The translations under genes and the position numbers were made by a program. Under the pieces are notes generated by a model that did no database searches, was not told where the DNA came from, and saw only the letters and a list, made by a program, of their open reading frames with translations. From positions 224,001-288,000 of the forward strand of contig CAWCDG010000002.1 in NCBI GenBank assembly GCA_963794325.1: a stretch of 64,000 nt of DNA, read 5' to 3'. Position 1 is the stretch's first letter; each line of letters starts with the position of its first letter. The stretch comes from an uncultured delta proteobacterium. Lineage in GTDB: Bacteria > Desulfobacterota > Binatia > Binatales > Binataceae. Of this stretch, positions 12,286 to 33,166 are shown one piece after another.

Positions 12286-13152
12286 TCAGGCCCTCGCGGA
12301 CAAATTGCTCGCGCGACGAGATAATGGACTGGCGAATCGTCCATTTGCCGGCGCCTTTACCGAGCCAGCCTCTGCCATCGAACGTGTACGATAGAGTTGG
12401 CCGACGTTCGGAAACTGCAGTGGTGCACCAGCTCTGGCTAATGAGTCGCTCGCCTTGCGCAGTGGGACGTTGATCGAACTCTCGAGATTGTCCAGACGCA
12501 CAATCATTTGCCGCCCTTGGCGTAGCAGCAAATGTTCGCGCTCGAACTCTGCGATGTGCTCAGTGACTCTCGGCCGTGACGCACTCACCAGGCCCGCCAA
12601 ATCCTGGTGGCTGAGAAAGACTCGCAAGAGCGTACCGCGGGACTCTTTGACTCCAAAGATCGAACACAGTTGAAGAAACGTGAACAAAAGGCGTTCGCGG
12701 AGGTCGAGGCTTCCTCCGAAGAACCGATACCATTGTGTCAGATTGCTTTCGTGAAATTTTCTTAAATCAGATCTGGGTGCGTCTCTGGTGATTACGTCGA
12801 ATTGGTCCCAGCTCACGCTGCCGACCCTGCAATCGGTATGAGCCTCGCATCGAAAATGCCATCTGCTCACTGGGAGAGAAACAAAATGGGGGATTGGACC
12901 TGGCGCAAGTAACGCTGTGGGTACACGCTGGCCCGCCGGATTCAGGCAAGTGATCTTCGCCACGCCTCTCAGCAGGATATGGACACCTGCCGCGAGCTCT
13001 TTTTCAGGAAAGATGACTACGCGCCTTGTGAAGTTTGCCGAACTGAGCGACATCGCGAGTTCGTGCAATGCAACAGTTGAAAGAAACGAGAAGGACTTCA
13101 ACTGATTCAACAAATCAAAGTCCGTGGGAGCCGCGTTCTTCTGTCTGTCCAT
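12286..13152 (-). CDS. Crp/Fnr family transcriptional regulator
   Basis: cNMP-like N-domain (ILLRGVAKIT...LLAPG) and Crp HTH LSHQDLAGLVSASRPRVT. Confidence 0.88.
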   Translation of the reverse strand: MDRQKNAAPTDFDLLNQLKSFSFLSTVALHELAMSLSSANFTRRVVIFPEKELAAGVHILLRGVAKITCLNPAGQRVPTALLAPGPIPHFVSLPVSRWHFRCEAHTDCRVGSVSWDQFDVITRDAPRSDLRKFHESNLTQWYRFFGGSLDLRERLLFTFLQLCSIFGVKESRGTLLRVFLSHQDLAGLVSASRPRVTEHIAEFEREHLLLRQGRQMIVRLDNLESSINVPLRKASDSLARAGAPLQFPNVGQLYRTRSMAEAGSVKAPANGRFASPLSRRASNLSARA

Positions 13153-13234
13153 CGGCTTTCCTTTTCTGGCGACCAAAATACCTATCGAGAGTAAGGCAAG
13201 GACCATACCAATCGTCCGGGGCTGCAGGATTACT

Positions 13235-14873: not shown

Positions 14874-16088
14874 TCAAGCGTTCGAGCTGTTCGACGAACC
14901 GCGGAACAGGCGGGGACCGTATTGTGCCGCCATGCGAAACGGCCGAATCACCCAGTAGAGCGGGAAGAGGGCGGCCGGCAGCGGGATTAGTTCGTAGTCG
15001 CCCATCGTCGGCGCCAGCATCCGGCGGACAATATATCTCAATCGCGCGCGCCCACCCTCGATCGAGCGAAGAGGAACCTCCCACGGATCGAAGTCTGTCC
15101 GCCCCTGCGCGGCACCGCTGAACAGTCGGCTCGCGATGCGCGATGCCAATGCCTGGGCGGCGCGTTCGCGACGAGCTATCTCGACAACGTTCGCAGGAAT
15201 CGGCGCGTCAAGCAGGTCGTGCGCAAGGCAGATGCCAGTCAGGAACATCCTGCGGCTGCCGAGAGCGGTCGCCTCGTCGAGGGTGTCCATCAATGCGATG
15301 CCTGGCCGGGCGCGAATAGTCTCCGCAACATCGCAGATCACGCCAAGCGTGACCCATCCGTGCTTGGCGGCGTGAACGCATAGATACAGCAGCAGGTCCT
15401 CCGGCGCGATCGCGGTCACGGTGCCGAATTTCAGATCGACGGCACGCGCGCGCCGCCACAGCGCCTGCTCGTCGGGCGCGAAACGGAACGCGCGCGGCGT
15501 GATATTCCAATGAACGTCCACCGCACCCATCCCGCCCGCGGCAAAAAACGCGTCCTCGTATTCCTGGAAGTATCCGGTCGCGAGTCCCTCGCGCCTGGAA
15601 TGCGGCGACAGATACCCTTGCGCGCTGAGTATCTCTGCGATCCGGGGCAGATCCGTCTGACGCACCAGAAGATCCAGGTCGCTGAACTGGCGCAGCTCGA
15701 TCGATCCGTATGCCATCGCGGCCAGCACCGGACCTTTGAAGGTGACCGCGGGTATCCCGGCCGCTTCCAGCAATCCCATCAGCCGCACAAGTTCAGCCGT
15801 GAGATGACGGTTGTAGAGGATGATCAGCTGCCACTCCGTTCGGAGTCTCGCCATCGCTTCTTCCGGCACGGCGTCCGGACATTCGCCCTTCAGATATCGA
15901 TGGACCAGCGGGAGTACCGCATGGCGTTTTGCAATGTCGATGACGCGGTCCCAACTTTGGACGCGTGCCGCGGTTTCGGAGGCCAACGCCGTGCGTGCGG
16001 GCGTCGCCGCCGTCGTCGCGCAGTACAGCACAAGCGCCGCTTCAGTGGGCAAGTGGGAACGGTCGAGGAGAACGTCGTCGGATGCCAC
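14874..16088 (-). CDS. nucleotidyltransferase family protein (NTP_transf_5, lasso-cluster type)
   Basis: GIPAVTFKGPVLA..AYG...LRQFSDLDLLV, VDVHW, LLYLCVHAAKHGW..L..ICDV. Confidence 0.9.
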   Translation of the reverse strand: MASDDVLLDRSHLPTEAALVLYCATTAATPARTALASETAARVQSWDRVIDIAKRHAVLPLVHRYLKGECPDAVPEEAMARLRTEWQLIILYNRHLTAELVRLMGLLEAAGIPAVTFKGPVLAAMAYGSIELRQFSDLDLLVRQTDLPRIAEILSAQGYLSPHSRREGLATGYFQEYEDAFFAAGGMGAVDVHWNITPRAFRFAPDEQALWRRARAVDLKFGTVTAIAPEDLLLYLCVHAAKHGWVTLGVICDVAETIRARPGIALMDTLDEATALGSRRMFLTGICLAHDLLDAPIPANVVEIARRERAAQALASRIASRLFSGAAQGRTDFDPWEVPLRSIEGGRARLRYIVRRMLAPTMGDYELIPLPAALFPLYWVIRPFRMAAQYGPRLFRGSSNSSNA

Positions 16089-16191
16089 GGAGTTATCAAC
16101 AATAGCTGGAAGCGATTGCGTCTCGAAAGTCCGCTCGATAACTTTCAGTGATTCTTATAGTCTTCGACGTGGGGCCGCCTTCATCCAGTAA

Positions 16192-16635
16192 ATGACCCGG
16201 ATTGGAAAATTTTTCGCGCTGGCGTCGTCTGATCGGAGGCTGCTCTTGAGGACGATCGCGCCTCTGGTCGCGATGCGTGCCGCGGTCTTGGCGCTGAACT
16301 TCGCGCGAGTGCGGCGCATTGCCGAAGCGATGAGCCGGCCGTTGCGCATCGATGCGGACGCGGCCCGTCCTTCACCGGACAGGATTGCGTGGGCGGCGGC
16401 GACGGCGAGCCGGGTCGTCCCGGGCGGGAGCAACTGCCTGGTCCGCGCGCTCGCAACCGGCATCGTGCTCAAGCGCTACGGCTATCCGAGCGAGCTGAAG
16501 ATCGGCGTCACCAAGCCCGCGAGTGGCCGCTTCGAAGCGCACGCGTGGCTCGAGAGCGACGGCAGCGTCGTGATTGGCGATTTCCAGCTCGATCGATACA
16601 CGGCCATGGCAGCGCCGGATACCGTCGCGCGATAG
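16192..16635 (+). CDS. lasso peptide leader peptidase B2 (transglutaminase-like)
   Basis: NCLVRALA (catalytic Cys), LKIGV, FEAHAWLE (catalytic His). Confidence 0.93.
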   Translation: MTRIGKFFALASSDRRLLLRTIAPLVAMRAAVLALNFARVRRIAEAMSRPLRIDADAARPSPDRIAWAAATASRVVPGGSNCLVRALATGIVLKRYGYPSELKIGVTKPASGRFEAHAWLESDGSVVIGDFQLDRYTAMAAPDTVAR

Positions 16636-16669
16636 TATCACCCGACGCTTGCGCTCGCTTCCGATACCC

Positions 16670-16945
16670 TAACAAAGAGTAGGGATTTACGTCAGTAAGC
16701 CTAATTGGCGACTTCTAACGGTTAATAGCCGATAAAGAAACCATCAATACGGGCCATAAATCCGCTTGATGTATTAAGAATTTTCGAAAACAAGTACGTG
16801 CGGTCCTTCCTCGTTGTGTATTGCGAATTTAACAAATTGTAGGAATTTACGTCACTTAGCCTAAGTAACAACTTCTAACTGCCACCAAAGCAGTCAATGA
16901 GGGTTATAAATCCGTTTGACGTAAGGAAGGCAAAGTGGAATCATT
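16670..16945 (+). promoter_or_regulatory. tandem ~100-bp regulatory units and sigma70-like promoter upstream of beta-helix gene 1
   Basis: Two units aacaaa..gtagg.atttacgtca.t.agcctaa....c.acttctaac...ataaatccg.ttga.gta; TTGACG(16916)-17 nt-AATCAT. Confidence 0.7.
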
Positions 16946-17080
16946 TCGCCTTCGCTCGCAAAACCATAGGTCAAATTTATCATGACGTGTCTAAACCCAA
17001 CGTCCAAGATCCAAGAGTCACGCAGACAATTGCTACTGATTCATCGCAATGGAAGACGAAATAAAAGCGAAGGAGAGCAT

Positions 17081-18022
17081 GTGAGTACAATCAAACGAGG
17101 CTTGCTTATGTTGGCCATTCTTGGCGGTCTGGGCTTGTCTGGACCGCAGGGTGCGTGGGCCAAGACGAAACTGCAGCAGGTCGATCCCATGACCATTGCT
17201 CCCTGCACGTCGAGTACCACGACGCTGAGTGGGAGCAACATTGTCTACACGCTGTCGACGAGTTTCTCGACGACCTTCACCGGCACTTGCATTAAAGTGA
17301 CGGGCAACAATGACCTCGTGATCATCGGTCCTTCGGTCACGATCTCCGGAGCCGGAGCCGGAATTGGCATCGACGTCGAGGGCAGCAACGATCTGATAAA
17401 CGGCCGTTCCAGCACAATAAGCGGGTTTGCGACGGGGCTCCTGGATCATGGGAGCAACAATTTGGGGGACAATCTGAATTTCTCCGGCAATGGAACCGGA
17501 CTGAAGCTGACGGGGACTACACTCAGATACATCAATTTGAATTCGAGTTCTAACACTGGGGTCGGCATTTGGCTCAGTGGATGCGGCGATGAGTGCGCCG
17601 TCTCGGATTTCTTCGTTGGGAGCAATGGCGGTGATGGACTGCTTATAAACGGCAGCAGCCCAGCCGCCGTTGCGAGCCTATTCATATCTCAAGACAACAC
17701 CGGTAACGGAGTCCACGTAGGCGGTCCCTCCGGCGATAACGTCGGTAACGTCTTTATAGATGATGCGGCCCTCGACTCGACACTAGCCGTCAACAACAAC
17801 GGCAAAGACGGAGTCTTTCTGGATGCGAGTGAAAACGGAGCAATAGACATGGTGACCGGGGTTATCTCTGACCTGAACGGGAGCGGCATCGATATGCACG
17901 ACGCAACCGCCAATTGCGGATCGAGCGGTCACTTCAATCTCTGGTCTTCACTCTCTTTCGGTACTTCGAAAGCGGGTGGTACGTCCAGTCCTGCCTGCAT
18001 TCCGAATCTGCCGGCCGAATAG
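17081..18022 (+). CDS. secreted right-handed parallel beta-helix protein, paralogue 1
   Basis: GTG start after AGGAG; signal peptide ..QGAWA-K; repeating N.G.G(I/V).L / GIDV motifs; conserved Cys pairs. Confidence 0.82.
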   Translation: MSTIKRGLLMLAILGGLGLSGPQGAWAKTKLQQVDPMTIAPCTSSTTTLSGSNIVYTLSTSFSTTFTGTCIKVTGNNDLVIIGPSVTISGAGAGIGIDVEGSNDLINGRSSTISGFATGLLDHGSNNLGDNLNFSGNGTGLKLTGTTLRYINLNSSSNTGVGIWLSGCGDECAVSDFFVGSNGGDGLLINGSSPAAVASLFISQDNTGNGVHVGGPSGDNVGNVFIDDAALDSTLAVNNNGKDGVFLDASENGAIDMVTGVISDLNGSGIDMHDATANCGSSGHFNLWSSLSFGTSKAGGTSSPACIPNLPAE

Positions 18023-18035
18023 GCTGGGGTTCATG

Positions 18036-18070
18036 ACTATGGCGGCGCCGGATAACCGTCCCGCCATAGT
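18036..18070 (+). terminator. hairpin terminator
   Basis: actatggcgg...ccgccatagt followed by tt. Confidence 0.55.
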
Positions 18071-18099
18071 TTCACCAACTGGTTGACTGCGTCCGATAC

Positions 18100-18340
18100 T
18101 CGTAACAAAGAGTAGGGATTTACGTCAATCAGCCTGACTGACGGCTTCTAACAGCTAAGGGCCGATGAAGAAGCCAAGTACGTCAGTCCTTCCTCGTCGC
18201 GCGGTGCCGACCTAACAAATTGTAGAAATTTACGTCAATCAGCCTAATTTACGACTTCTAACGGCTAGAGGCCAATACCGGAGTGGTCAATGAGGGCTAT
18301 AAATCCGCTTGACGTAAAGAGGGCAAAGTGAAATGATTCG
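18100..18340 (+). promoter_or_regulatory. repeat regulatory units and promoter upstream of beta-helix gene 2
   Basis: TTTACGTCAA at 18119 and 18229; its perfect inverse TTGACGTAAA at 18309; TTGACG-17-AATGAT. Confidence 0.7.
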
Positions 18341-18469
18341 CGCTGCTCGCAAAACCATAATCAAATCCGTCACTGCACGTCTTAAATCAACGTCCAAGAT
18401 CAAGAGTCACGAAGACAATTGTTACTGATGCACCGCAATTAATAACGAAATAAAAGCGAAGGAGAACAT

Positions 18470-19429
18470 ATGAGGACATTTAAACGAGGCTTGCTCATGT
18501 TGGCCATTCTTGCCGGGCTCGGCTTGACAGGATCGCAGGCGGCGTGGGCGAAGAAACACAACGACGGCGGCGGGCAGGTTGATCCCACAACCATTACCCC
18601 CTGTACATCGGCCACAACGACGCTCGCAACGAGCAATATTGTCTACACGCTGTCAACGGGTTTTTCGACGAGCTTCGTCGGCACGTGCATTAAAGTGACG
18701 GGCAACAATGATCTCATAATCATCGGTCCCCAAGCCACGATCACTGGCCCAGGTTCCGCGACCGCATCAATTGGCATCGACATTACGGGCACCAACGACA
18801 CGATCAACGGTCGTGCCAGCACAATAAGTTCGTTTGGAACCGCAGTGCTGGATGCCGGGACAGACACCTTGGGAGACAATCTCGACTTCACGGGTAATGG
18901 AGTCGGGCTCAAGATGACCGGGCACACAACCAAATGGGTCAACCTGAATTCGAGCAGTAACACCGGTAGTGGCGTTTGGTTCAATGGATGCCAAGATACC
19001 TGCGTCATCAACGATTTTTTCACTGGGAGCAATGGCGGTGATGGAATGCTCATAAACGGCCAAAGCCAGGGAACCGTTGCGAGCGTATTCATTTCTCAGG
19101 ATAACACCGGTTACGGAGTCCACGTAGGCCAAGCAACTGGCCAGGGCAATGGACCCACGATCATCGATGACGCGTCTCTCGACTCGACATTGGCGGTCAA
19201 CAATAACGGCAGCGACGGGGTTTTCCTGGACGTCAGTGAAGCCGGCGCTCTGGATGTGGTCACGGGCGTCGATGCAGAGAACAACAGCGGTATCGATATG
19301 CACGACGCGACAACCAATTGCGGATCGGGTGCCGGCCATTTTAATCTATGGTCGTCAAACTTTTTTGGTACTTCGAAAGCGGGTGCCACGACCAGTCCTG
19401 TTTGCATTCCGCTACTCCCGACCGAATAA
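18470..19429 (+). CDS. secreted beta-helix protein, paralogue 2
   Basis: Aligns along its full length with paralogues 1 and 3 (VDPTTITPCTS...GTCIKVTGNND...DMHDATTNCGS...FNLWSS..FGTSKAG..SPVCIP). Confidence 0.85.
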   Translation: MRTFKRGLLMLAILAGLGLTGSQAAWAKKHNDGGGQVDPTTITPCTSATTTLATSNIVYTLSTGFSTSFVGTCIKVTGNNDLIIIGPQATITGPGSATASIGIDITGTNDTINGRASTISSFGTAVLDAGTDTLGDNLDFTGNGVGLKMTGHTTKWVNLNSSSNTGSGVWFNGCQDTCVINDFFTGSNGGDGMLINGQSQGTVASVFISQDNTGYGVHVGQATGQGNGPTIIDDASLDSTLAVNNNGSDGVFLDVSEAGALDVVTGVDAENNSGIDMHDATTNCGSGAGHFNLWSSNFFGTSKAGATTSPVCIPLLPTE

Positions 19430-19451
19430 ACTCTTCATCGTTTGTCGGCGA

Positions 19452-19482
19452 CCTCCGTCGGATCCACCGGATCCGACGGAGG
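19452..19482 (+). terminator. GC-rich hairpin after paralogue 2
   Basis: cctccgtcggat-ccaccgg-atccgacggagg. Confidence 0.65.
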
Positions 19483-19539
19483 GCCGGCGAGAGTTCCCAC
19501 CCGCAAGATCCTTCGCTCCAGTCGATTTTGAGACACATA

Positions 19540-19665
19540 TAACAAATTGTATGAATTCTCGTCAATTTGCTTAAGGTACGACTTCTAATTACTAGAAGCC
19601 AACGCCAAAGCGGTCAAAGGGAGTCATAGCTCGCTTGACGCAAAGAAGACAATGTGAAATGATCG
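19540..19665 (+). promoter_or_regulatory. single degenerate regulatory unit and promoter upstream of beta-helix gene 3
   Basis: aacaaattgtatgaattctcgtcaa...cgacttctaa...TTGACG(19635)-17-AATGAT. Confidence 0.65.
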
Positions 19666-19729
19666 ATTTGGGTCTAAAACCGCACATAAATCTATCACAG
19701 CACGTCTTAAATCAGAGGAGAATAAGTAA

Positions 19730-20692
19730 GTGGCAGTAATCAAGCGCGGTTTGTTCATCCTGGCGATCCTGGTCGCCGTAGGCTTAACCGGCTCACAGGC
19801 TGCGTTAGCCAAGTCTCATGGGCCGGCCATGGTTGATCCGACGACCATTGCCCCCTGCACATCGGCTACCACAACACTCAGTGCAAGCAATACGGTCTAT
19901 ACGCTGACATCGAGTTTCTCGACGACCTTCACCGGCATCTGTATTAAAGTTACGGGCAGCAACGACCTCTTGATGCTCAGTTCCGACGTCACGATCACTG
20001 GTCCCGGAGCCGGGACTGGTATCGACATCGAGGGTAGCAATGACACGTTAAACGGCCGTGCCGGCACCGTGAGCGGGTTTGCGACGGGGATCCTGGATCA
20101 CGGCAAAGGCACTTTGGGAGAGGACGTCGATGTCACCGGGAATGTAACCGGTCTGGAGCTGACGGGGCGCACAGTCAGATGGGTGAATGTGGCTTCGTTT
20201 TCGAACACCGGCAACGGCATTTGGTTCAATGGATGTGCGGGCCAGGATTCGTCGCAAACTGCGGGATGCACCATTGCGGATTTTTTCACCGGCAGCAATG
20301 GCCTTGATGGACTGCTCATAAACAACGGCAGCGATGGCGCGAGTGCGGCCGTATTCATCTCCATGAATAACACCGGCAACGGAGTCCACCTGGGCGGTAC
20401 GGTTGGAGGTAGCGGTAATTCCGAGGTGGTGTTGGATGACGCGGCGGTCGAGTCGCCGACAATCGCTGACAACGGCCTGGACGGGATTTTTCTGGATACC
20501 AGTGAAAACGGCGCTGCAGACACGGTCACGGGGATTATTGCCGGCGGCAACACCGGTATCGATCTCCACGACGCGACCACCAACTGCGGCTCGAGCGGCA
20601 GCTTTAATCTTTGGTCCTCCCTCATATTTGGTACTTCGAAAGCTGGTGCAACGACCAGCCCCGTCTGCATTCCGCAAATCCCGAATTTGTAA
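19730..20692 (+). CDS. secreted beta-helix protein, paralogue 3
   Basis: GAGGAG RBS with GTG start; signal peptide; same architecture as paralogues 1 and 2. Confidence 0.85.
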   Translation: MAVIKRGLFILAILVAVGLTGSQAALAKSHGPAMVDPTTIAPCTSATTTLSASNTVYTLTSSFSTTFTGICIKVTGSNDLLMLSSDVTITGPGAGTGIDIEGSNDTLNGRAGTVSGFATGILDHGKGTLGEDVDVTGNVTGLELTGRTVRWVNVASFSNTGNGIWFNGCAGQDSSQTAGCTIADFFTGSNGLDGLLINNGSDGASAAVFISMNNTGNGVHLGGTVGGSGNSEVVLDDAAVESPTIADNGLDGIFLDTSENGAADTVTGIIAGGNTGIDLHDATTNCGSSGSFNLWSSLIFGTSKAGATTSPVCIPQIPNL

Positions 20693-20722
20693 GCTCGCTT
20701 CTTCCATCGTTTTGTCGACGAA

Positions 20723-20751
20723 CCTCCGTCGGATCCCGGATCCGACGGAGG
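20723..20751. terminator. hairpin between convergent genes
   Basis: cctccgtcggatc-ccg-gatccgacggagg; same stem as 19452-19482. Confidence 0.65.
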
Positions 20752-20791
20752 CCTCGCGAGCTTCTCACTAGCCACCGGCGAGGAGTCGGGA

Positions 20792-21775
20792 TCAGCGGCC
20801 GCGGTCGCTCAAGTCGCGCAGGACGGCCTGCTTTACGTCGGCGAGTGCGGCGAAGTCGTTGGGCATCACCAGCTGTTTGATCGGCACCTGCTCGGCAACG
20901 CTCGCCAGGAAATGGAACTGACGTTTCAGCATCGCCGTGTCGGTAATATCGAACCGGTAGGCCGCCTTGACCAATCCCATAAGAGCTTCTGCGGGGGCGA
21001 GCACTCGAATTGTGACGCGGGTCGACGGTCTGCTCGAGTTCGAGCGCTTGAGCAAATAGACGCGTGCGAGCCGCCGTGGCTTCGTGTAGAACTCGGTGGG
21101 GCGGGAATACGTTGACCAGCGCGACTTTCCCGTATAGTGGGCGACCGGCTTCAAATTCCGCGAGGTCGCCCCGACACCCCGAATCGAATCATCCCAAAGC
21201 CGCAAGCCCGGGTACCCGGGAAGCCCCACAATAGTCTTGCGTTCGGTAACCGCCAGACAATCGTCGCAGACCAGCGGGTAGCCCGACAGGACGAAGCTTG
21301 CCGCGAGAGTCGATTTGCCCGATCCTGCCGGCCCGGTGAACGCACAAATTCCTTTCGGGGTCGCAACGGCAGTGGCATGCAGCGCTTCCCCGCCGCGCAG
21401 GTTTACGATGAGTGGAAGCACCTGGTCGATCAGGAGATGACGGATGGTGCGAATAGTCGCGTCGCCACTGGCGTTGCAACAGACTATCCGGCTTCCAACC
21501 CGGTCAACGACGAAGTCGGCAAGATTCGGGAAGGAAAGGACGTAACCATCCGGGATTTTGCCGTAACGAAGCCAGGGCTTGCCTCGTGGTTGCCGCGATT
21601 GCAGATACCATCGAGGAGTAAGGTGAGCGCGCTCGAAGCGCCGGGCAAGACTCACACGGACTGCGTTCCGGTGCGACGACGGCTTCAGCGTCGCGAGCTC
21701 GGGAATCGACATGTCCGCGACGATCTGTAGGCCGTAGGCCCGGTTATCGAAGGTTCGGATCCTCGTTTTGCTCAA
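20792..21775 (-). CDS. HPr kinase-like lasso peptide kinase
   Basis: LHATAV (His), Walker A GPAGSGKSTLAA, LVCDDCL (DD), PGYPGLRLW.D. Confidence 0.88.
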   Translation of the reverse strand: MSKTRIRTFDNRAYGLQIVADMSIPELATLKPSSHRNAVRVSLARRFERAHLTPRWYLQSRQPRGKPWLRYGKIPDGYVLSFPNLADFVVDRVGSRIVCCNASGDATIRTIRHLLIDQVLPLIVNLRGGEALHATAVATPKGICAFTGPAGSGKSTLAASFVLSGYPLVCDDCLAVTERKTIVGLPGYPGLRLWDDSIRGVGATSRNLKPVAHYTGKSRWSTYSRPTEFYTKPRRLARVYLLKRSNSSRPSTRVTIRVLAPAEALMGLVKAAYRFDITDTAMLKRQFHFLASVAEQVPIKQLVMPNDFAALADVKQAVLRDLSDRGR

Positions 21776-22019
21776 AGTCAGCTACGGGGGCGCGCCGAGC
21801 GGAGCATCCCACGTGGAGGCTCGCCCGGCGCGATACCGTTGAAGCCGGACCCGAACTCTACCATTCCGAGAGTCGCCGGGTTCACTACATTTTGAACTAA
21901 TTGCCTACAACATTGAATGACGCGAAGACGAGCGAAGTTCGTTACACATCCTGGAACTCCCCACCAGCCGGAAGTTGAGTTCGCACCCAACCCGGCCCGC
22001 CGCCCCTCGAACTTCTAAT

Positions 22020-22190
22020 CTACAGGCAAATCGACGACATCATTGTATTGGTGCCGTCAGGCGAATTTACGGTTCCACCCGAGGCGGTGAGCTTCGCGAC
22101 GCTTCCGTATTCGACCAAGCGAGGACGAATATACTGTCGCTTTGCTCGCTCTTCCTTCTTTTTCGCCGGTTGTGGTGTGCTTTTGGTCAT
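22020..22190 (-). CDS. lasso peptide precursor (A), 56 aa
   Basis: Not in the ORF track. GGAGAGG RBS; MTKSTPQPAKKKEERAKRQYIRPRLVEYGSVAKLTA-SGGTVNSPDGTNTMMSSICL*. Leader motif YxxPxLxxxG, Thr at -2, Asp at core position 9. Confidence 0.93.
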   Translation of the reverse strand: MTKSTPQPAKKKEERAKRQYIRPRLVEYGSVAKLTASGGTVNSPDGTNTMMSSICL

Positions 22191-22267
22191 TTACCTCTCC
22201 CTAAATCCAGTGCCGTTAAAGATAGCAAGACCCACAATTACTGTCAAGAAAGTGCCGGGATGACTCA

Positions 22268-23470
22268 TTAACGTGTTTCTTTTTTGAAACGCGCCGGAAC
22301 CTCAAGCGAAGGTTTGGCGGTATGTGTCCCCTCGAGGCCGTAGGGAATCAGAACTTCGGTCGCATACTCGGAGGCCTTGGCCAGCGACGGAAAGAGGTCG
22401 CCATGAACCCGGAACAGTTCCTTTTCTATTTCTGCAACCGTGCGCTTTCCATCGATCAGGTTGACCGTTGTCCGCCTGGCCTCGCCCCAAACCGAAAGCT
22501 GCGGGACAAAATCGGGCCGCGTCTTCGCCAAATCCTCGGGCGCCAGCAACATCCCTTTGAGCGTCGAATGAATGAAGCGCGCCTTCTGTTCACCCCTGGA
22601 ATTGCGGATGGTCACCGTCCAGCTGAGCATCGTCTGCGCCGCGATGATGCCCATCTTGATCTTCACGCGGTCGCCCTTCCGCAGATCGACCGGCTTTTCA
22701 ATTGGCAGGAATGCAGCGCGCCGGGTGATCCGTCCTTTGCTGAAGGGCGAGTTGGTCATGTTGATGCCGGGCGCGAGCTCGGCAACGAACCATCCGCTGA
22801 GGCCGTGCATAACGCCAGCCGCGGAAACTTCGATCTCAGCTTCGGCATGAACGTGTTCCGGCGTCAGTTCGGTAAGATCGAAGGTGACCATCCGCGCCGG
22901 CTTGCCCAGCATTCGACGCGGGCTATTCTCGGCGGGGTATCCGGTGTTGAATGCGATGACGTGCGCGGGCGCCATATTCAGCCCGGCAGGCTTTTTGTCC
23001 CAGAAACTCACGGCGTCCCACATTTCGGGAAAATTCACCGGCGTAACGAACAGCTCGATGCGTCGAGGGATGGTCCGGCCGCCGGGCTTGAGGAAACGCT
23101 GGCGCGCGTCGTTGAAGATCTCGGGCATCCCTCCGCCAATTCCGAAATGGCTCAGCTGGTCTGCGATAACGACGTCGACCTTCTCGGGCAGCGTGGCGCG
23201 ACTGGAGACTTGGCGAATCCCTGTCGCGGTTTGCCCGCAACCATTGGCTCGGGCCACGTCGCGGGCTATTTGGATCATGCCGGTCAGGTCAACCTGGTAG
23301 AGTCGTGCGGCTCCCGCTTTCATCGCCAGCATGCCAAGCACGCCGGTCCCGCAGGCGAGGTCGAGAACGACGTCACCCGGCTTGACCACTGCGTTGATTG
23401 CCCGGCGAAACAATGAAGTCCTGGTCCGGTCGGTAAGGTACAGGCGGTGCTCATCTAGCATCAATGACAT
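22268..23470 (-). CDS. SAM-dependent methyltransferase, PRMT-like fold, with C-terminal PqqD/RRE-like segment
   Basis: H..YL.D..RT..F..AI, VVLDLACGTGVL.M.A..AGA, LPEKVDVVI, RQRFLKPGG..IP, HGLSGWF; C-terminal LIDGKRTVAEI. Confidence 0.85.
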   Translation of the reverse strand: MSLMLDEHRLYLTDRTRTSLFRRAINAVVKPGDVVLDLACGTGVLGMLAMKAGAARLYQVDLTGMIQIARDVARANGCGQTATGIRQVSSRATLPEKVDVVIADQLSHFGIGGGMPEIFNDARQRFLKPGGRTIPRRIELFVTPVNFPEMWDAVSFWDKKPAGLNMAPAHVIAFNTGYPAENSPRRMLGKPARMVTFDLTELTPEHVHAEAEIEVSAAGVMHGLSGWFVAELAPGINMTNSPFSKGRITRRAAFLPIEKPVDLRKGDRVKIKMGIIAAQTMLSWTVTIRNSRGEQKARFIHSTLKGMLLAPEDLAKTRPDFVPQLSVWGEARRTTVNLIDGKRTVAEIEKELFRVHGDLFPSLAKASEYATEVLIPYGLEGTHTAKPSLEVPARFKKETR

Positions 23471-23539
23471 TGGGTGCGTTCCATCTCGTTCAATTCAAAA
23501 TAGGCAGGTTCAAATGTGGGCGGCTGGCGAGTGACAGAC

Positions 23540-25489
23540 TCACAGCGCCGCTCCGCTGGCCGCGGTCACTTGATCGAACGGCTCGCTGATACCCAGGAAC
23601 ACGACATTGAGCCACAGTTCAATCGCAAGGACCATCCATAGAAAGAATACATTCTCCGCGTAGGAGGGATCGCCGCGCGAATACGCGGCAGCCATCGAGT
23701 GGTATAGCTTCCGAACCGCTTCCCCGTCCACCCATCCGTTTTTGACACTGCTCAGGCGATCGAACAGCCGCTCTCCACCAAGCGCGATTAGCGCGTTGGC
23801 GTAAAGCTCGGTGGGGTCGGCCTTGTCAGGCCGCATCCGCAACCGTTCTGGCAGGATTCCGCGCATCGCTTCGCGCAGTACGATCTTGGTGAAGTTGCCC
23901 CGGCATCGTTGGCTGTAGGGGATCGCGAACGCAAACTCCATCACGCGGCGGTCCAGGAACGGATGGCGGCCCTCAACTCGGAAACCTGCTTCCCAGCGTC
24001 CGATCATCTCGAGAGCGTAAGCGAGAGATCCGGAAGAGTAAACGCCGTAGACATCTCGCTGTGCGAAACTGCGGCATCGCGGCAACGATGGCCGCGTGGA
24101 CAGCCGCTCCGACAGCCTCGTCCGGGCGGCAAACTCGCGCGAGACCACCGCGTTGGGCTCCGCGGGATTCCTCCACTGCCTGAGCACGGACTTCAGGCTG
24201 TCCGGAACCAACGGCAAGACTCCATACGGCAGCAGAGTTTTGACGTAGCCCGGAAAGGGCCCGAACCCAATTGGAGGATTCCGATGAATCCGCAACGTCT
24301 CCAACAGCGCCGGAATCCGCAACTGTTTGATCAGATCGGCATAGACGAAGTAGGTCCCCGACAGCCACTCGTCGCCACCCAGTCCGGTCATCCGAACTCT
24401 CAAGTCGTCGCGCTTGCCCAGCAGCGGCGTGTAGTCGGCGCACGCCGTGTTGGGATAGTCAGGCAGGTCCATGTAGTGCGCAACTTGCCGCATGAGTTCG
24501 GTGAGTGGAGCCATTCCGGGCGAGAGATAGGTATGGCGATGAGGGTACTTATGCAGGACCTCATCGACGTACTCATCTTCGGCGGCGGGTCCGGGCGCGA
24601 AGCGGACCGAGAAGCTTTCGAAGTTGTCGACTTGCACCTCTCGGTTGCGGCGCAAGGTCTCGGTCATACAGACAATTGATGAGGAATCAAGTCCGCCGCT
24701 AAGGTCCGACGCCACTCCTTTGACGCTCCGCAGCCGGCACCGCGTAGCTTCCTTGAAGAGCGAGAGAAAATGTTCGCCGTACTGCTCATCGGTGGAATAG
24801 GAAATTTCGCGCGAGGGATCGAGATCGTAGTAGCGCCGGCATTCCACGCCGCGCGCGCTGACGCGCAGGTAATGCGACGGCTCGAGGCGGCGAATGCCTT
24901 CAAAGAGGGTCTCAACCCGGGAGACGGGCGCTCTTACCAGGATGTCGGCGATCGCAGGCTCGTTCGGCCTTCGCGGTACTCGCGGGTCCTGAAATAGTTG
25001 ATGAACCTCCGATGCGCAAAGAAAAAAACCCGAACCTTGGTAGTAATAGAGACTCTTTACTCCCAGTGGGTCGCGGGCACAGTACAGTGTTCGCGTCGTC
25101 TCGTCCCACAAAGCGAACGCGAAATCGCCGATCACTTTCGCCGGCGCATCCGTGCCCCAACACTGCCAACTGCGAAGCATGATCTCCGCATCGGTCCCGG
25201 TATGCACGCGATGACCATGCGCCGTCAGCTCCTTGATGAGGTCGTCGCGGTTGTCCAACCGCCCGTCCATCGAGAGCACCAGCCCCGCGTTGTCGTCCAC
25301 GAAAGGGCTGGTTTCCGCTGAAGCTTCAACTGTCGTGCAGAGTCTTGCGTGGCCCATCGCGACGGGACCACGATGCCAGACGCCAAGGCCGTCAATCCCT
25401 CGATAAGGGACGACCGCGAGCATCCGTTCTACCGTCGATCGTTCAGCCGGGGAGCCCTCGGTATGAAAGAGCGCCGCGATGCCGCTCAC
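23540..25489 (-). CDS. lasso cyclase C (asparagine synthetase-like)
   Basis: Likely start MSGIAA (lacks the glutaminase Cys of AsnB); DGRLDNR, GDFAFALWD, ARDPLG, LSGGLDSSSI, TGLGGDE, RHPFLDRR, K.VLREAM.GILPE..R.DK. Confidence 0.93.
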   Translation of the reverse strand: MSGIAALFHTEGSPAERSTVERMLAVVPYRGIDGLGVWHRGPVAMGHARLCTTVEASAETSPFVDDNAGLVLSMDGRLDNRDDLIKELTAHGHRVHTGTDAEIMLRSWQCWGTDAPAKVIGDFAFALWDETTRTLYCARDPLGVKSLYYYQGSGFFLCASEVHQLFQDPRVPRRPNEPAIADILVRAPVSRVETLFEGIRRLEPSHYLRVSARGVECRRYYDLDPSREISYSTDEQYGEHFLSLFKEATRCRLRSVKGVASDLSGGLDSSSIVCMTETLRRNREVQVDNFESFSVRFAPGPAAEDEYVDEVLHKYPHRHTYLSPGMAPLTELMRQVAHYMDLPDYPNTACADYTPLLGKRDDLRVRMTGLGGDEWLSGTYFVYADLIKQLRIPALLETLRIHRNPPIGFGPFPGYVKTLLPYGVLPLVPDSLKSVLRQWRNPAEPNAVVSREFAARTRLSERLSTRPSLPRCRSFAQRDVYGVYSSGSLAYALEMIGRWEAGFRVEGRHPFLDRRVMEFAFAIPYSQRCRGNFTKIVLREAMRGILPERLRMRPDKADPTELYANALIALGGERLFDRLSSVKNGWVDGEAVRKLYHSMAAAYSRGDPSYAENVFFLWMVLAIELWLNVVFLGISEPFDQVTAASGAAL

Positions 25490-25517
25490 CAGCCGGCGCG
25501 CTCCTTGGCGCAAAGCA

Positions 25518-25805
25518 TCATCGCGAGCGAGGCTTGGATTCCCGGTTCAGTCGCACGAGTCCTTTGTCGGCCAGTTGCTGCAGAAGATCCTCGAGGTCGC
25601 GTCGGAGTTGATCCGGCTCAACGTCGAACTGCTTCTTGAGGGACTCGAGAGCCTTTTCGAGCGAGGGCTGTTCGACGAGTTGATGCCACATCTGCTCACC
25701 GGCCCCGTCCAATCCAAAATATACACCGGTGGCGAGGTTCAGGATGACGACCTCGTCGCTGAGGTCGCGCCAAATTACGTCGTCACAGATTTCAACCCGC
25801 GTCAC
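25518..25805 (-). CDS. PqqD family RiPP recognition element (lasso B1)
   Basis: DEVVILNLATGVYFGLDGAG..MW..L...L...FDVE...L..DL..LL..L...GLV. Confidence 0.93.
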   Translation of the reverse strand: MTRVEICDDVIWRDLSDEVVILNLATGVYFGLDGAGEQMWHQLVEQPSLEKALESLKKQFDVEPDQLRRDLEDLLQQLADKGLVRLNRESKPRSR

Positions 25806-25926: not shown

Positions 25927-26418
25927 TTATTCCGTCATCGCCGATTCAGTAAACGACAGGTTGGTCGGAAAGGTTATTCCCAGCAAAGTGTTAGAAGGTA
26001 GAAAGATCCTGCTGGATGCATCGTAGGTGATCGCGACACTGAACTGGCAACCGAATGTGCGTGGCGGGCCGCAGTTCGCGGTGTTTGCGGCAGTCAGGGT
26101 GACGGTGGCGCCGCTGATCGTTGGCGACATCTGGTTCGAGATCGCAGTCTTGAGCGTTGCGCTGGTAAGGGCAGCATTGATTTGAGCGGTGCGCGCCCCG
26201 AGATAAGACGCCTGACTGACGGCGAGCGCTGCCTGGCCGATTAGGGCGAACTGGACTCCGACCAACATTATAACCAGGACCAGAGGTACGATCAGCGCGA
26301 GTTCCACCGCCGACTGACCACGTTTGAAACGGCGTCTCCGTCCGCCGCTGCCATCATCACGTGCCCAGGCTCTCGCGCCTGACAGAGACGCTCTGATGCT
26401 AGCGTATGACACCATCAT
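25927..26418 (-). CDS. TadE-like pseudopilin
   Basis: RGQSAVELALIVP prepilin motif (G|QxxxE) followed by a TM helix; start uncertain. Confidence 0.88.
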   Translation of the reverse strand: MMVSYASIRASLSGARAWARDDGSGGRRRRFKRGQSAVELALIVPLVLVIMLVGVQFALIGQAALAVSQASYLGARTAQINAALTSATLKTAISNQMSPTISGATVTLTAANTANCGPPRTFGCQFSVAITYDASSRIFLPSNTLLGITFPTNLSFTESAMTE

Positions 26419-26484
26419 ATCCCTCGGATTAATGAATAGCCGATTCATCTGCTCCGCCGAACCAAGAGCCACTGCTTGAATTCA

Positions 26485-27462
26485 CTACTGGATTAAAACC
26501 GGTTTCGTGGTACCAGTTACCGGCCCATTCGCATCTGCGATGTCGGCGGAAATGTTGGTCGAGACCACTTCGGCGTAAAATTGGCCCGGTGCGCCGGGCT
26601 CAGGGACGATCAGCGCCGTGATAAATCCAGTGATATCGACGGTCTTCTTGCCATTCGGAAGCGAAGCAACCATCGGGATAACGATCACTCGAGGATCGTT
26701 GGGATCGGTTAGAACGCTGGGATCGCTTGCATTCGGCACTTCAGTCCCGAGGTTGTAACGATCTTGTACACCTGGCCCGCCGTGAACGTTCACGTCATTG
26801 CCAGTGACTGTATCGACATCGGTAGTGCCAACCAAAATTGGCGTAGTTCCGCCGTAGCCATTTTCAATTGCCGCCTCATAGTGACTGCCTGTATATCCCT
26901 GGGTGGGATCTTGGGCACTGAAATCCAAGCCTCCCCAATTGCCCGGTGTTTGCTTAATGGCGTCCCCAGGAAGACCGAAAGTCTGGCCGGGCGCTGCGTT
27001 CGCACACGGCGGGGCTGCGCACACAAAGCCGAACGGGACTAGATGAGTCCCACCTGCGCCGACAATCGGTTGTATCTGCGCCTTGGCGGTTACTTGAACT
27101 GGAGCACTGCCTAGTCCTAATGCCTGTCCGAAAAGATACGGCACCGTCCGTTGAACCGTAAGCGAGATAGTCTGGTGGCCGACGACCGTTGGTCCACTAA
27201 TAATCTCGCCCGCCTGAATTCCGTTCGAGGTCGCGTAGGTGGTCGCCGTCGCGATGGCATTGTTGTCGCCGGTCGAGTCCGTGCCATTGAGCATGCCGGC
27301 TCCAGACAGCACCGCCTGATCAGCGGCCTTCTGGATTCCCTGCCAGTTCATGTACATTACGGCGACGTCGCTCCCGAGCGCTACCGCGCCCAGAAGCACC
27401 GCAAGGATCCCAGCGTACAGAACGATTACCTGCCCGCGTGGCTTACCAAGTATCTTCATCAT
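26485..27462 (-). CDS. TadG-like pilus assembly protein
   Basis: RGQVIVLYAG..., D......IQKAADQAVLSGA Tad motif; PGNWGGLD. Confidence 0.88.
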   Translation of the reverse strand: MMKILGKPRGQVIVLYAGILAVLLGAVALGSDVAVMYMNWQGIQKAADQAVLSGAGMLNGTDSTGDNNAIATATTYATSNGIQAGEIISGPTVVGHQTISLTVQRTVPYLFGQALGLGSAPVQVTAKAQIQPIVGAGGTHLVPFGFVCAAPPCANAAPGQTFGLPGDAIKQTPGNWGGLDFSAQDPTQGYTGSHYEAAIENGYGGTTPILVGTTDVDTVTGNDVNVHGGPGVQDRYNLGTEVPNASDPSVLTDPNDPRVIVIPMVASLPNGKKTVDITGFITALIVPEPGAPGQFYAEVVSTNISADIADANGPVTGTTKPVLIQ

Positions 27463-27639
27463 TTGTATCGACCTCTCGGATCCGGTCATCGAACCCACGA
27501 CGAGCGGATTCTGCTAAAAACCCCTTTGTTCCTCCTTTTCGTATCACCTGTCCTACTTTATGGCAAGTATGCAACAGGTGGTCGGTTGAAGGAGAGCGCG
27601 TGATGCGAAAACACGCTTAAATCCATCGTGTCGACCGTT

Positions 27640-27668
27640 AATCTAACAAGACTCAAGATTTACGTCAA
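27640..27668 (-). promoter_or_regulatory. sigma70-like promoter for tadG-tadE(-lasso) unit
   Basis: TTGACG-17 nt-TAGATT; contains the TTGACGTAAA motif also found upstream of the beta-helix genes. Confidence 0.6.
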
Positions 27669-27842
27669 GAATCAATCGTAGCAGGTATGCTACTTTGAGT
27701 AGTAGAAGATGCCAAGCTTGTAGGATACCGGGAGGCTGGTCGAAGTAGTCAGTCTAATACTGAAGTCCGAATGCCCGCAAAGGGGCGGACCCAGGCCCGC
27801 CCCTCGCGCGCTTCTGCTTCTGAACCCGCTCGCGGCCGGCTG

Positions 27843-28801
27843 CTAGCTCCGGCAGAACGCTTTGATGGCATCCTGCAGGTCGTCCACGCTTGGATACCCC
27901 AAGTCATGGGATGCCTTCTTGATGCCTCCGTCCGTGGTGGCCAGGTAGGACACACACTTGCCGTGACAGTTCGGTTTTCCGGGGATCGCATCGGTAGCAC
28001 CGAAACAGCCGGGCAGGGGGAGTGAGATATCTTCACACTGGTCAGGTGCTACACCCTGATTCGCGATCAGAGTCCCGGCGAAGGTCGTTTGGGTGAAGCT
28101 GTCAAAGTCGGTTTGAAAGAACAGCGAGATTCCATCGGTCTCAACGCCGGTGGATGACATGGCACCCGGGACAACAATCGTCGTGGCGGGAATCACGGCA
28201 CCCGTCGAGGGATTGTATTGGTCGTAAACGGGGATACCGTCGCCTTCGTTGATCAGGAAGTTGCCGTTCGGCAGGATGTTGAAGCCATCAGAATCTGTCG
28301 CGGCCGGCGCGGAAATACTGATGGGGCCGCTCACGATCGCCCCGGTAGACGGATTGAGTCCAAAGACTTCCGGTGTATCGTAGGGATAGCCCGTCAATAC
28401 GTAGAGCACACCACTTCGGAAAGCGATATCCTGAATCCCGAAGCCCGGCCGAGGGTTGGGTAGGGTCCCGATGTCTGCGCCTCCAGCCCCGCCGTTAAAC
28501 GGCGCGATTCGGATAAAATCCGTCGCTCCAAACTGATCGGTTAGCTCCGTGTAGTAAACTCTGTTGCCGATGATCTCGATGCCGCGGCCATTTTGTTCGT
28601 CGAAGGCGCCGGTCGGAACGAAGGAGCCTACGACTGCGCCGCCGTTGAAGTCGTAGGTGGTAATCGGTCCGCCGCCGTTCAGCGCTGCATTGTTGCACGT
28701 GATTAGGGGTTGCGCCTGTGCCGTGGCGGCCCAGAGTGCCACGATGAGGGTGAACGCCATCGCGAGCAGACCACTCGCTTTCAATGCGAATTCCGTTTCA
28801 T
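27843..28801 (-). CDS. secreted repeat protein (propeller-like) with Cys-containing C-terminal domain; start appears frameshifted
   Basis: ORF 27843-28784 has a signal peptide. The GGAGGAG-ATG at 28801 is one base out of frame; adding one A gives MKRKFALKASGLL. C-terminus PGKPNCHGKCVSYLA...LQDAIKAFC. Confidence 0.75.
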
Positions 28802-29103
28802 AACTCCTCCGACGTCTTTGAATTTCAAATTTGTAACTCGTATCACGCCCGTTGCTTGCCGGTATCAGTGGAGGTACCCGACATTGAAACGCCCCGGGGC
28901 AGATACTGACTGAATGAAAGCCTGCGACCAGTCAGTTCTACGAAGCGCTTTATCTCATCGGTCCGTCTGATAAGTCAAATCAAGCGGTGGTCTAGTTGGT
29001 TAACCTTTGATGATCCGAAGCAGAGTGCCTCGGCAATCGGGCCGGTCATAGCCACCAATGAATTCGTGCGGATCAGGTTTTGAGAAGGGACAGCGTACCG
29101 AAT

Positions 29104-29518
29104 CTACTGCGAGACGAGCATCTGCGAGCTGCTGGTCAAGGTCAGCGGGACGGCAGACATTAACGGAATCGTCTGAGTGTAGTTGTGGGTGATCGTCACC
29201 AGCGCATCCCGCTGCGTTGGAAGGGTCGCATCGGCTGGAAAAGAAACGCTGACTTCGGCCGTGCTCAGGAACGGCGCGTAGCTTACGGCTACGGCCTGAA
29301 TCTGCGCGGTGGTGGCCGGGTTCTGACTGGTAGAACTATGAACGATCGCGTAGCGGGCGGCTTCTCGCGCTGCATCGCTCACGGTGTTGTATCGATAGAC
29401 CACGATGCCCATTCCCATAATTGCGAAGAGCAACAACAAGAAGGTTGCAGCCACCACCGCAAACTCAGCCATCGCCTGTCCGGAAGACTTCCATCAGCAA
29501 GGAAAATCGCTCGTTCAT
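29104..29518 (-). CDS. TadE-like pseudopilin (5' frameshift)
   Basis: SGQAMAEFAVV..., AAREAARYAIVH. The natural ATG at 29518 (TAATG overlap) is out of frame with the body. Confidence 0.8.
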
Positions 29519-29971
29519 TATTGCTGAACCTGCATTATCGCTTGCCCGTCAGCGTGTACGACGAAGTGATTCCAGGATAATTCAAGATGGTATTATAGGT
29601 TGCAGAGGTATTGACCGTTACATAGGTCGCCGTCGGCGCGTGGGTGCAGTAGCTTGTAGCACACAGCGGAACCGTCTGCGGATTCGCCACAATACAGGTG
29701 CACTGCGATGCGGTCGGCGTGTTCCAATTGGAAATGTTCGCAGCATCAGCACTAGCCGCCGCCACCATGCCGGCCGAATTGGCCGCGTTGGTGACGCTTT
29801 GGGAGCCGAATTGTGCGCCCGCGCGAGCCGCGTTGTTGACGGCGACGCTGACGAAGAAGACCCGGGCGAAATCGGCGATCACGACCAGCAAGAGCAGCAG
29901 GACGGGCACGACGATCGCAAGCTCAACTGCGCTCTGGCCCGTTCCAAAGGCCAGCGTCTGCGATCTTTCAT
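29518..29971 (-). pseudogene. TadE-like pseudopilin with frameshifts near both ends (possibly sequencing indels)
   Basis: MKDRRRWPLER/GQSAVELAIVVP...NAARAGAQFG...YTLTGK/AIMQVQQ*; each break is repaired by one extra G. Confidence 0.75.
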
Positions 29972-29994
29972 CTTTTCTGTCTGGAACCGCACCT

Positions 29995-33130: not shown

Positions 33131-33166
33131 GTACAACTTCCTTCCGCTATTGTTTTGCGGGCGCCA

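Follow-up and report, generated by a model that had tools for sequence, protein, structure and literature searches.

A widespread lasso-peptide subfamily with a PRMT-fold methyltransferase, as represented by a dispersed gene set in a Binataceae genome

How is a lasso peptide matured and exported when the DNA around its genes holds no exporter, and what is the role of a methyltransferase with the fold of protein arginine methyltransferases (PRMTs) next to a peptide that has no arginine? Both questions are raised by positions 14874-25805 of the 64,000-nucleotide stretch analysed here (the window), which covers positions 224,001 to 288,000 of contig CAWCDG010000002.1 in the assembly GCA_963794325.1 of an uncultured soil bacterium of the Binataceae (Desulfobacterota, Binatia). 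This segment carries a predicted complete lasso gene set, consisting of a precursor (A), a recognition element (B1), a leader peptidase (B2) and a cyclase (C), together with three candidate tailoring enzymes: a kinase (K), a nucleotidyltransferase (N) and the PRMT-fold methyltransferase (MT). Among the sequencing runs listed as containing this stretch, all are of soil DNA. We find that the locus belongs to a widespread lasso subfamily with a kinase, a methyltransferase and a nucleotidyltransferase, which is uncharacterised and represents a variant of the phosphorylated-lasso type. The cluster is real and, judging from its genes, probably functional, and the explanation that we consider likely is a lasso pathway of this subfamily spread over three genomic places, with export in trans. 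New from the window are the dispersed layout and a conserved, here triplicated, beta-helix neighbour.

Five of the genes run along the minus strand in the order B1-C-MT-A-K. B1 (25518-25805, 95 residues) is a PqqD-type recognition element (RRE) for peptides that are made on the ribosome and modified afterwards (RiPPs), which matches PF05402 with E 7.6e-16 and 58.7 bits, against a cut-off of 23.4; its top NCBIfam match, lasso_PqqD_Bac (E 4.4e-12), is under that model's cut-off. The asparagine-synthetase-like lasso cyclase C (23540-25513, 657 residues) matches Asn_synthase (PF00733, E 1.9e-40, 140 bits against a cut-off of 21) and GATase_7, and its top NCBIfam match is the lasso cyclase model NF033535 (E 1.1e-130), with 437 bits, below the model's own cut-off of 525. 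The methyltransferase gene (22268-23470, 400 residues) is followed by the precursor gene A (22020-22190, 56 residues), which is recognised by the lasso leader model NF033521 with 22.3 bits against a cut-off of 19, and by the gene of the HprK-like peptide kinase (20792-21775, 327 residues). The transglutaminase-like leader peptidase B2 (plus strand, 16192-16635, 147 residues) matches PF13471 with E 5.9e-25 and NF033537 with E 4.9e-28 (98.1 bits against a cut-off of 33), and is divergent from the PF14907 nucleotidyltransferase N (minus strand, 14874-16088, 404 residues; NTP_transf_5, E 1.6e-58), with 104 bp between the two start codons. A distance of 4.2 kb, occupied by three beta-helix genes, separates the kinase from B2. 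The open reading frame (ORF) listing and the family scans thus confirm the genes named in an earlier, first-pass annotation of this DNA, with their coordinates and strands, as well as its description of a complete lasso cluster with three tailoring enzymes, in which the nucleotidyltransferase/B2 pair is displaced by about 4 kb.

The same annotation had proposed a new, multiply modified lasso subtype; comparison with other genomes shows that the subtype is not peculiar to this locus. At E ≤ 1e-5, over 1000 homologues of the methyltransferase are found, most of them of about 380 residues and conserved to the C-terminus, and 362 relatives occur among species-representative genomes. We searched the surroundings of the best 80 of these 362 by tblastn with the window proteins (E ≤ 1e-4); these loci belong to Binataceae-type metagenome-assembled genomes (Binatia), Acidobacteriota, Nitrospira, Methylomirabilota, Acidimicrobiales and others. 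Of the 80, 76 hold the kinase gene, 73 hold C, 65 B1, 50 N and 41 B2. When only the 41 loci with full 10-kb flanks are counted, the numbers are 41 for K, 40 each for C and B1, 30 for N and 23 for B2. Overall, most of the missing neighbours fall at contig ends. This co-occurrence, which bears out the association of the gene set, indicates that the methyltransferase is a regular member of lasso clusters and not a chance neighbour.

To locate an export route we considered the window and the rest of the genome. Pfam scanning of 65 window ORFs (16 + 49), which correspond to 61 of the 74 heuristically called ORFs (the other 13 being short or overlapped by longer ORFs), turned up neither an ABC transporter nor any peptidase family. 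An exporter is, however, encoded in the same genome on contig C5, in a B1'-ABC-OmpA module where it immediately follows a second lasso-type RRE (B1'; top NCBIfam match lasso_PqqD_Bac, 65.6 bits). This exporter is 58% identical to the one inside the related cluster L017 and 80% identical to that of locus L088, while the other 12 exporter matches in the window genome reach at most 33%, and a NAD synthase gene flanks both the C5 module and L017. The same exporter type lies inside the locus in L016, L017 and L020 (53-58% identity) and in L003 and L011 (50-52%). A similar dispersal is seen for B2, which is single-copy in the window genome and in four relatives; in these four it is found at a distance from the methyltransferase operon, in a module that also holds a second RRE, the order being B1'-B2-ABC-OmpA in L088, B1'-B2-N'-ABC in L090 and B1'-B2-K'-N'-ABC in L091. 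A module of this kind lies next to the methyltransferase operon in L011 and L003.

The window genome has one cyclase, which is its sole Asn_synthase-family match, and when the genome was searched by tblastn with the ten proteins, K, the methyltransferase, N and B2 each proved to be single-copy, the only extra being the second B1 on C5. A leader-motif search of the genome returned the window precursor, which is the only credible match, and one unconvincing ORF on contig C4. With one cyclase, one precursor and single tailoring genes, B1' and the C5 exporter are left with no other client in the assembly. The earlier statement that the window has no exporter or isopeptidase is borne out by the 65 ORFs scanned; as we read the C5 module, "no exporter" describes the window and not the lasso system.

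The alternative offered by the first-pass annotation was a self-contained new subtype with no export route, whose product would remain intracellular or cell-bound, serving in signalling or at the surface, and would not be a secreted antibiotic. The lack of an ABC transporter or isopeptidase among the scanned window ORFs is in line with this, as are the secreted beta-helix proteins adjoining the cluster and the related loci L034, L005 and L064, which also have no adjacent exporter, although one does adjoin the cluster in L013, L017 and L078. On the other hand, an orthologous exporter stands right after the second lasso RRE in the same genome, its type is found within five related loci, and the subtype is widespread. 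We consider retention in the cell rather unlikely, the C5 exporter having removed the basis for a signalling or cell-surface peptide.

Two observations were made on the modules themselves. The C5 module (genome G000, contig C5, 1-19000, locus L108) adjoins type IV secretion genes (VirB8, CagX/VirB9-like and TrbI/VirB10-like, 3354-6168), and may lie beside or inside a conjugative element. In L011 (1-7300) and L003 (4178-7191) the region immediately upstream of the methyltransferase operon holds a second lasso module, which has no methyltransferase; its order in L011 is B2-C'-A'-K'-N'-ABC, with a precursor that ends in HGQG. The presence of this second module indicates that the lineage had two lasso systems with shared parts.

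Parts scattered over three places would also be found in a decaying, non-producing cluster, in which B2 has moved, the exporter was left behind and a beta-helix gene was duplicated into the gap. Some relatives do show breaks: the cyclase match of L007 (7984-9933) is in three pieces and the methyltransferase match of genome G178 (contig C15, 15847-17004) has an in-frame TGA, both of which may reflect decay or sequencing errors in these relatives. Furthermore, the Nitrospira loci L057 and L074 keep the precursor, the methyltransferase, K and N, and neither C nor B1 was found in their full 10-kb upstream flank; here, too, core genes may be located in another part of the genome. In the window, however, all ten ORFs are intact and of full length relative to their homologues, and the catalytic residues of the kinase and the SAM (S-adenosylmethionine)-binding motifs of the methyltransferase are retained. 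The B1-C-MT-A-K-bh layout (bh, beta-helix gene) is moreover kept in eight related genomes at 60-85% identity, which argues for purifying selection. A decaying cluster is thus, in our judgement, distinctly unlikely, and a dispersed pathway with export in trans remains the preferred explanation.

The substrate of this pathway can be outlined from the precursor and its homologues. The leader of the window precursor contains Y20-x-x-P23-x-L25 and T35; with T35 at position -2 the core begins at Ser37 and has an Asp at core position 9. The predicted 20-residue core, SGGTVNSPDGTNTMMSSICL, has no Arg and no Lys, and ends in Cys-Leu. A short-word tblastn search yielded 79 precursor candidates in 76 of the 80 loci, of which 78 were parsed (the L023 candidate lacks the K-L/I-T motif). 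Three rows were dropped, one from a methyltransferase-less cluster 7 kb away and two of aberrant length, which left 75 methyltransferase-linked cores. In an alignment of 36 rows (the window precursor and 35 homologues) P23, K33 and T35 are invariant, and Y20, L25, Y28, G29, L34 and the ring Asp, D45, are kept in at least 90% of the rows. Among the 78 parsed candidates, with Thr set at -2, the Asp or Glu that would accept the ring bond occupies position 8 in one set of 36 and position 9 in another 36; the first core residue is Gly in 38 of the 78 and Ser in 12.

The composition of the 75 cores bears on all three tailoring enzymes. Cys-Leu is the C-terminal end of 63 cores, each with a single Cys. 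Every core contains Cys or Met, with Met present in 67 and making up 12.5% of all core residues. Arg is absent from 46 of the cores and both Arg and Lys from 32. All 75 have a Ser or Thr among the first seven residues, and none of the 75 ends in Ser.

Upstream of the precursor gene, in the gap that follows the methyltransferase gene, lies the best promoter-like match of the region (22219-22247, minus strand; TTGACA-17-TATCTT, TG-extended, 10/12 consensus positions), which would fit a separate, strong transcription of the precursor; the promoter and terminator scan of the region gave totals that are not above the shuffled expectation (5 promoter-like sites). The 244-nt gap between A and the kinase gene is poorly conserved across nine loci and has a fold z-score of -1.8, and we do not claim an RNA element there.

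The kinase has weak matches to HprK-related families (TIGR04352, E 6.2e-9, with only 35 bits against a cut-off of 200), and its residues H133, G151, G153, K154, S155, D171 and D172 are invariant across 75 aligned sequences. Four of these, H133, K154, D171 and D172, constitute the His-Lys-Asp-Asp motif named for lasso kinases in the portion of the source available to us (PMC9266682). According to the same partial text, PadeK, ThcoK and PsmK phosphorylate a C-terminal Ser, after which PsmN adds a hexose to the phosphate (PMC9266682), and the accessible part of a second paper gives Ser3 as the acceptor of BsfK (PMC10368454). The pairing of a kinase with a PF14907 nucleotidyltransferase, which the first-pass annotation had traced to paeninodin/pseudomycoidin-type clusters, agrees with what could be seen of PMC9266682. 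Its analogy with paeninodin-type Ser phosphorylation breaks down at the acceptor, since the window precursor has a Cys-Leu terminus and a C-terminal Ser is found in none of the 75 cores; the phospho-acceptor must then be internal, and the ring Ser or Thr present in every core is the conserved candidate. The nucleotidyltransferase is about 80% identical to a copy located after the beta-helix gene in L005, L006 and L008, and can be likened to PsmN through their shared family, PF14907.

What does the methyltransferase act on? In an AlphaFold2 (AF2) model (pLDDT 91.3), residues 1-308 form a Rossmann domain and a beta-barrel, which align with type I PRMTs over about 300 residues with VIA-align Z scores of 31-32, a root-mean-square deviation of 2.6-3.8 Å and 20-24% identity. 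Foldseek matched PRMT6, PRMT2 and PRMT1 at E about 1e-26, and the nearest solved structures are all PRMTs. At E ≤ 0.01 there are ten Pfam matches (PrmA, PRMT_C, PRMT5_C and generic class I models), and no family named as of PIMT type (protein isoaspartate methyltransferase) or as an O-methyltransferase is among these ten. The N-terminal helix with R17 and motif I are kept. In a profile alignment to PRMT2 and PRMT6, the double-E loop has the invariant D104 at its first Glu, while the second Glu aligns, in this sequence-profile alignment and not in superposed coordinates, with a non-acidic Gly/Ala position (Gly113 in the window, with Gly112 adjacent); some relatives carry Glu, Asp or Asn at position 112, so that an acid is not conserved there. 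The place of the THW loop is taken in the alignment by R-I-x-R; R250 is invariant, and His-Trp is absent.

Residues 311-377 of the full-length AF2 model form a family-specific C-terminal domain of three helices, which lie within 327-377, with no beta-sheet. The last 82 residues have no Pfam match at E ≤ 10. Comparison of this domain by hhalign with a profile of 66 B1 sequences, which addressed whether it could be an RRE, gave a probability of 0.3, and Atlas look-alikes of residues 305-385 scored below 0.9, the PKMT winged-helix family (0.79) being a lead only. Among 1.84 billion representatives the domain has 149 matches, of which 148 belong to the same methyltransferase family or its fragments, as judged on those inspected and those of full length, and one is a repeat protein (P0122); we did not find the domain in another architecture in this set. 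A prediction of the complex of methyltransferase, SAM and precursor scored 0.02 against a mark of 0.32, a result with no bearing on binding either way.

It could be argued that this enzyme is a true protein arginine or lysine methyltransferase, which acts on a cellular protein and lies beside lasso genes by chance. The full PRMT fold (Z 32) would be expected in that case, and relatives are annotated as "protein arginine N-methyltransferase 1" or "L11 methyltransferase". Yet a cyclase accompanies the gene in 73 and a kinase in 76 of the 80 loci, across several phyla, neither the second Glu of the double-E loop nor the THW loop is kept, and the C-terminal domain is exclusive to the family in 148 of 149 matches. 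We consider a cellular target highly improbable. The loss of the guanidinium-binding residues, the gain of an invariant Arg and the Arg-free substrates instead argue for an acceptor other than arginine, which is possibly anionic. A PRMT-fold enzyme without the arginine-binding residues, beside mostly Arg-free peptides, points to a methylation so far undescribed both for the fold and for lasso peptides.

Our best guess for the methyl acceptor is the Cys thiol, then the C-terminal carboxylate and then other groups (a Met sulfur, the phosphate or a ring hydroxyl). We know of no PRMT-fold enzyme that methylates sulfur or a C-terminal carboxylate. The 12 of 75 cores that do not have the Cys-Leu end weaken the case for Cys as the acceptor; in five of them, those of L005, L006, L008, L010 and L011, a Met falls within the last four residues. 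Some 9 kb from the cluster, a gene of the leucine carboxyl methyltransferase family (PF04072; 34582-35463, minus strand) is probably unrelated to it, and is mentioned in view of the Cys-Leu end of the peptide. The first-pass remark that a PRMT-fold methyltransferase is not among characterised lasso tailoring enzymes agrees with our searches: we found neither a characterised case nor a characterised counterpart of the whole gene set in the literature searched, which left out most subscription journals, and an earlier bioinformatic mention may exist.

Between the kinase gene and B2 are three plus-strand genes that encode secreted right-handed beta-helix proteins, paralogues with 63-71% identity to each other. 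These are bh1 (17081-18022; 71% identical to bh2), bh2 (18470-19429, 319 residues) and bh3 (19730-20692, 320 residues; 63% identical to bh2, with a signal-peptide-like N-terminus). The ORF of bh1 opens at 16982, and its likely start is the GTG at 17081, which is homologous to the start of bh2 and has an AAGGAG 5 nt upstream. The fold assignment comes from the AF2 model of bh2 (pLDDT 83.6). Foldseek with this model gave generic beta-helix matches only (query TM at most 0.51), with weak ones to tailspikes, alginate epimerases and lyases. In the Atlas, bh2 resembles NosD/Beta_helix clusters (PF05048, PF13229; score 0.95). None of the beta-helix proteins matches a Pfam family at cut-off, the NosD match of bh1 (E 0.003) being weak and under it, and searching by sequence gave no relative of solved structure. 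Signal-peptide-like N-termini and conserved positions of Cys are common to all homologues.

In the first-pass annotation these genes figure as what displaces the nucleotidyltransferase/B2 pair. They are more than spacers: a single beta-helix gene directly follows the operon in all 10 distinct close Binataceae-type loci (L003-L011 and L036; L096 duplicates one of these and was counted once). This includes two altered layouts, that of L011, where the beta-helix gene comes after A with no kinase in between, and that of L036 (methyltransferase identity 51%), where it is on the same strand straight after A. The genes may nevertheless be unrelated neighbours with no lasso role, kept by synteny within one bacterial family. 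In keeping with this, the fold is generic and its matches weak, each paralogue has its own promoter-like site and upstream repeat, of 401 genomes sampled from the phylum, the family was found in just 2 (the window genome included), no homologue was found in related clusters of the 80-locus set beyond the 10 loci, and genome G178 has the methyltransferase and no beta-helix match. Against it stand the invariable position after the operon, even in the altered layouts, and the joint distribution within the host's genus, where G321 has both genes and G208 neither; G267 also has neither. We know of no link between NosD-like beta-helix proteins and lasso clusters. To us the evidence is evenly balanced: synteny with no lasso role has an equal claim, and a functional link to the lasso system has about an even chance.

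The repeat upstream of these genes is an 89-nt element (family D2, plus strand), found in two copies before bh1 (16670-16758 and 16830-16918) and in three upstream of bh2 and bh3 (18103-18191, 18213-18301 and 19540-19628). Its 25-nt core, TAACAAAnnGTAGnnATTTACGTCA, has 5 matches against 0 expected in 100 shuffles, and the element may be a shared regulatory site. A gene for a Crp/Fnr-type regulator is located at 12286-13206.

Taken together, these data allow us to propose the following pathway. B1 would bind the leader of the 56-residue precursor, and B2 would cleave after Ala36, leaving Thr35 at -2. The cyclase would then link the Ser1 amine to the Asp9 side chain, giving a 9-residue ring and an 11-residue tail, GTNTMMSSICL. 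The HprK-like kinase would phosphorylate a Ser or Thr hydroxyl other than a C-terminal Ser, a ring residue being the candidate, and the PF14907 enzyme may extend the phosphate, by analogy with PsmN. The PRMT-fold enzyme would transfer the SAM methyl to a non-arginine acceptor, at best guess either the penultimate Cys, through its thiol, or the C-terminal carboxylate, the latter held by the invariant Arg250 that takes the place of the THW loop. The ABC exporter next to the second RRE on contig C5 would export the product in trans, and the secreted beta-helix proteins would be a lineage-specific addition, possibly an extracellular partner of the peptide.

Several points weigh against this proposal. 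The pathway is read from genes alone: what we show is which genes these are, that they are conserved together and how the precursors of the family are built, and from this we infer the cleavage site, the ring size and every tailoring reaction. The C5 exporter is tied to the cluster by homology and synteny. The assembly is 85% complete, so that the single-copy counts are lower bounds. A core that starts with Ser1 is less usual than one with Gly1, and the Cys-Leu end is missing in 12 of the 75 cores, including those of five close Binataceae-type relatives. Finally, the dispersed layout could equally mean decay, as the fragmented cyclase of L007 and the in-frame TGA of G178 illustrate.

A bolder extension of the proposal would be a new chemical class, in which the sulfur-rich tail, with its many Met and the penultimate Cys of the Cys-Leu end, is the functional part, the repurposed PRMT-fold enzyme methylates sulfur or the C-terminal carboxylate, the peptide is a ligand of soft metals (e.g. 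copper(I)) or a redox molecule and not an antibiotic, and the NosD-like beta-helix proteins are its extracellular partners in the Binataceae-type lineage. We offer this as an unlikely, speculative possibility.

Other genes of the window lie outside the cluster. Directly beside B1 is a run of at least 7 TadE/TadG-like pseudopilin genes (25927-34389, minus strand). The segment 53563-63543 contains four sulfotransferase genes, four family-2 glycosyltransferase genes and one epimerase/dehydratase gene, a combination that suggests a sulfated polysaccharide locus. A 379-residue protein encoded at 8721-9860 (minus strand) has a signal-peptide-like start and a long, repetitive Gln/Asn-rich C-terminal half, and has no Pfam family.

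The interest in lasso peptides lies in their very stable scaffold, and with each new tailoring reaction the range of molecules that they can yield grows. The PRMT-fold enzyme described here is conserved in hundreds of lasso clusters of hard-to-culture soil and water bacteria. The window also illustrates that clusters can be functionally complete with the protease and exporter encoded elsewhere, in which case tools that score single loci would call them incomplete. In the beta-helix protein, encoded by a conserved neighbour of the cluster, the lasso peptide may have a protein partner.

Among known systems, the window is closest to the phosphorylated lasso peptides: paeninodin (PadeK), the ThcoK and SyanK systems, pseudomycoidin (PsmK, PsmN) and the bsf cluster of Bradymonas sediminis (BsfK, BsfN), which, in the parts of the sources open to us, have in common with it the split B1/B2, the cyclase, the HprK-like kinase, the PF14907 family and a YxxPxL leader (PMC9266682, PMC10368454). 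The window differs from them in the additional PRMT-fold methyltransferase, in having its exporter outside and beta-helix genes inside the cluster, and in its Cys-Leu end, in contrast to the C-terminal Ser that PadeK, ThcoK and PsmK phosphorylate; Ser3, the acceptor of BsfK, is the nearer analogy for the window kinase. The metanodin soil "Group II" clusters were considered as a match and rejected, because they pair a kinase with an FkbM-family methyltransferase and not with one of PRMT type; the accessible part of that paper describes a product for biosynthetic gene cluster (BGC) 89 only (PMC12670498).

The methylations described for lasso peptides in the available portions of the literature are C-terminal methyl esterification (LasF of lassomycin, StspM) and the PIMT-type formation of aspartimide (cellulonodin-2, lihuanodin) (PMC9266682, PMC13352647). 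Both share with the window a SAM-dependent methylation of a lasso peptide or its precursor, but they employ other methyltransferase families: as far as the source could be seen, StspM was modelled on mitomycin 7-O-methyltransferase, and the cellulonodin-2 and lihuanodin enzymes are PIMT homologues (PMC9266682). For longipeptin A, the text at hand tentatively assigns a Met S-methylation to LopH (PMC10664482), which provides a precedent for methylation of lasso sulfur, of interest for a family as rich in Met and Cys as that of the window. LopH, whose role is itself predicted, resembles in the same excerpt an MTHFR methyltransferase-like domain and not a PRMT (PMC10664482).

The predicted fold of the window beta-helix proteins is that of NosD-like, right-handed parallel beta-helix secreted proteins, to which the structural matches are generic. 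With the eukaryotic type I PRMTs (PRMT1, PRMT2, PRMT3, PRMT6 and CARM1), the window methyltransferase shares the Rossmann domain, the beta-barrel and an acid, D104, at the first double-E position. It departs from them in the replacement of the second Glu by Gly/Ala and of THW by R-I-x-R250, in the extra three-helix C-terminal domain, and in being encoded next to a substrate whose core contains no Arg.

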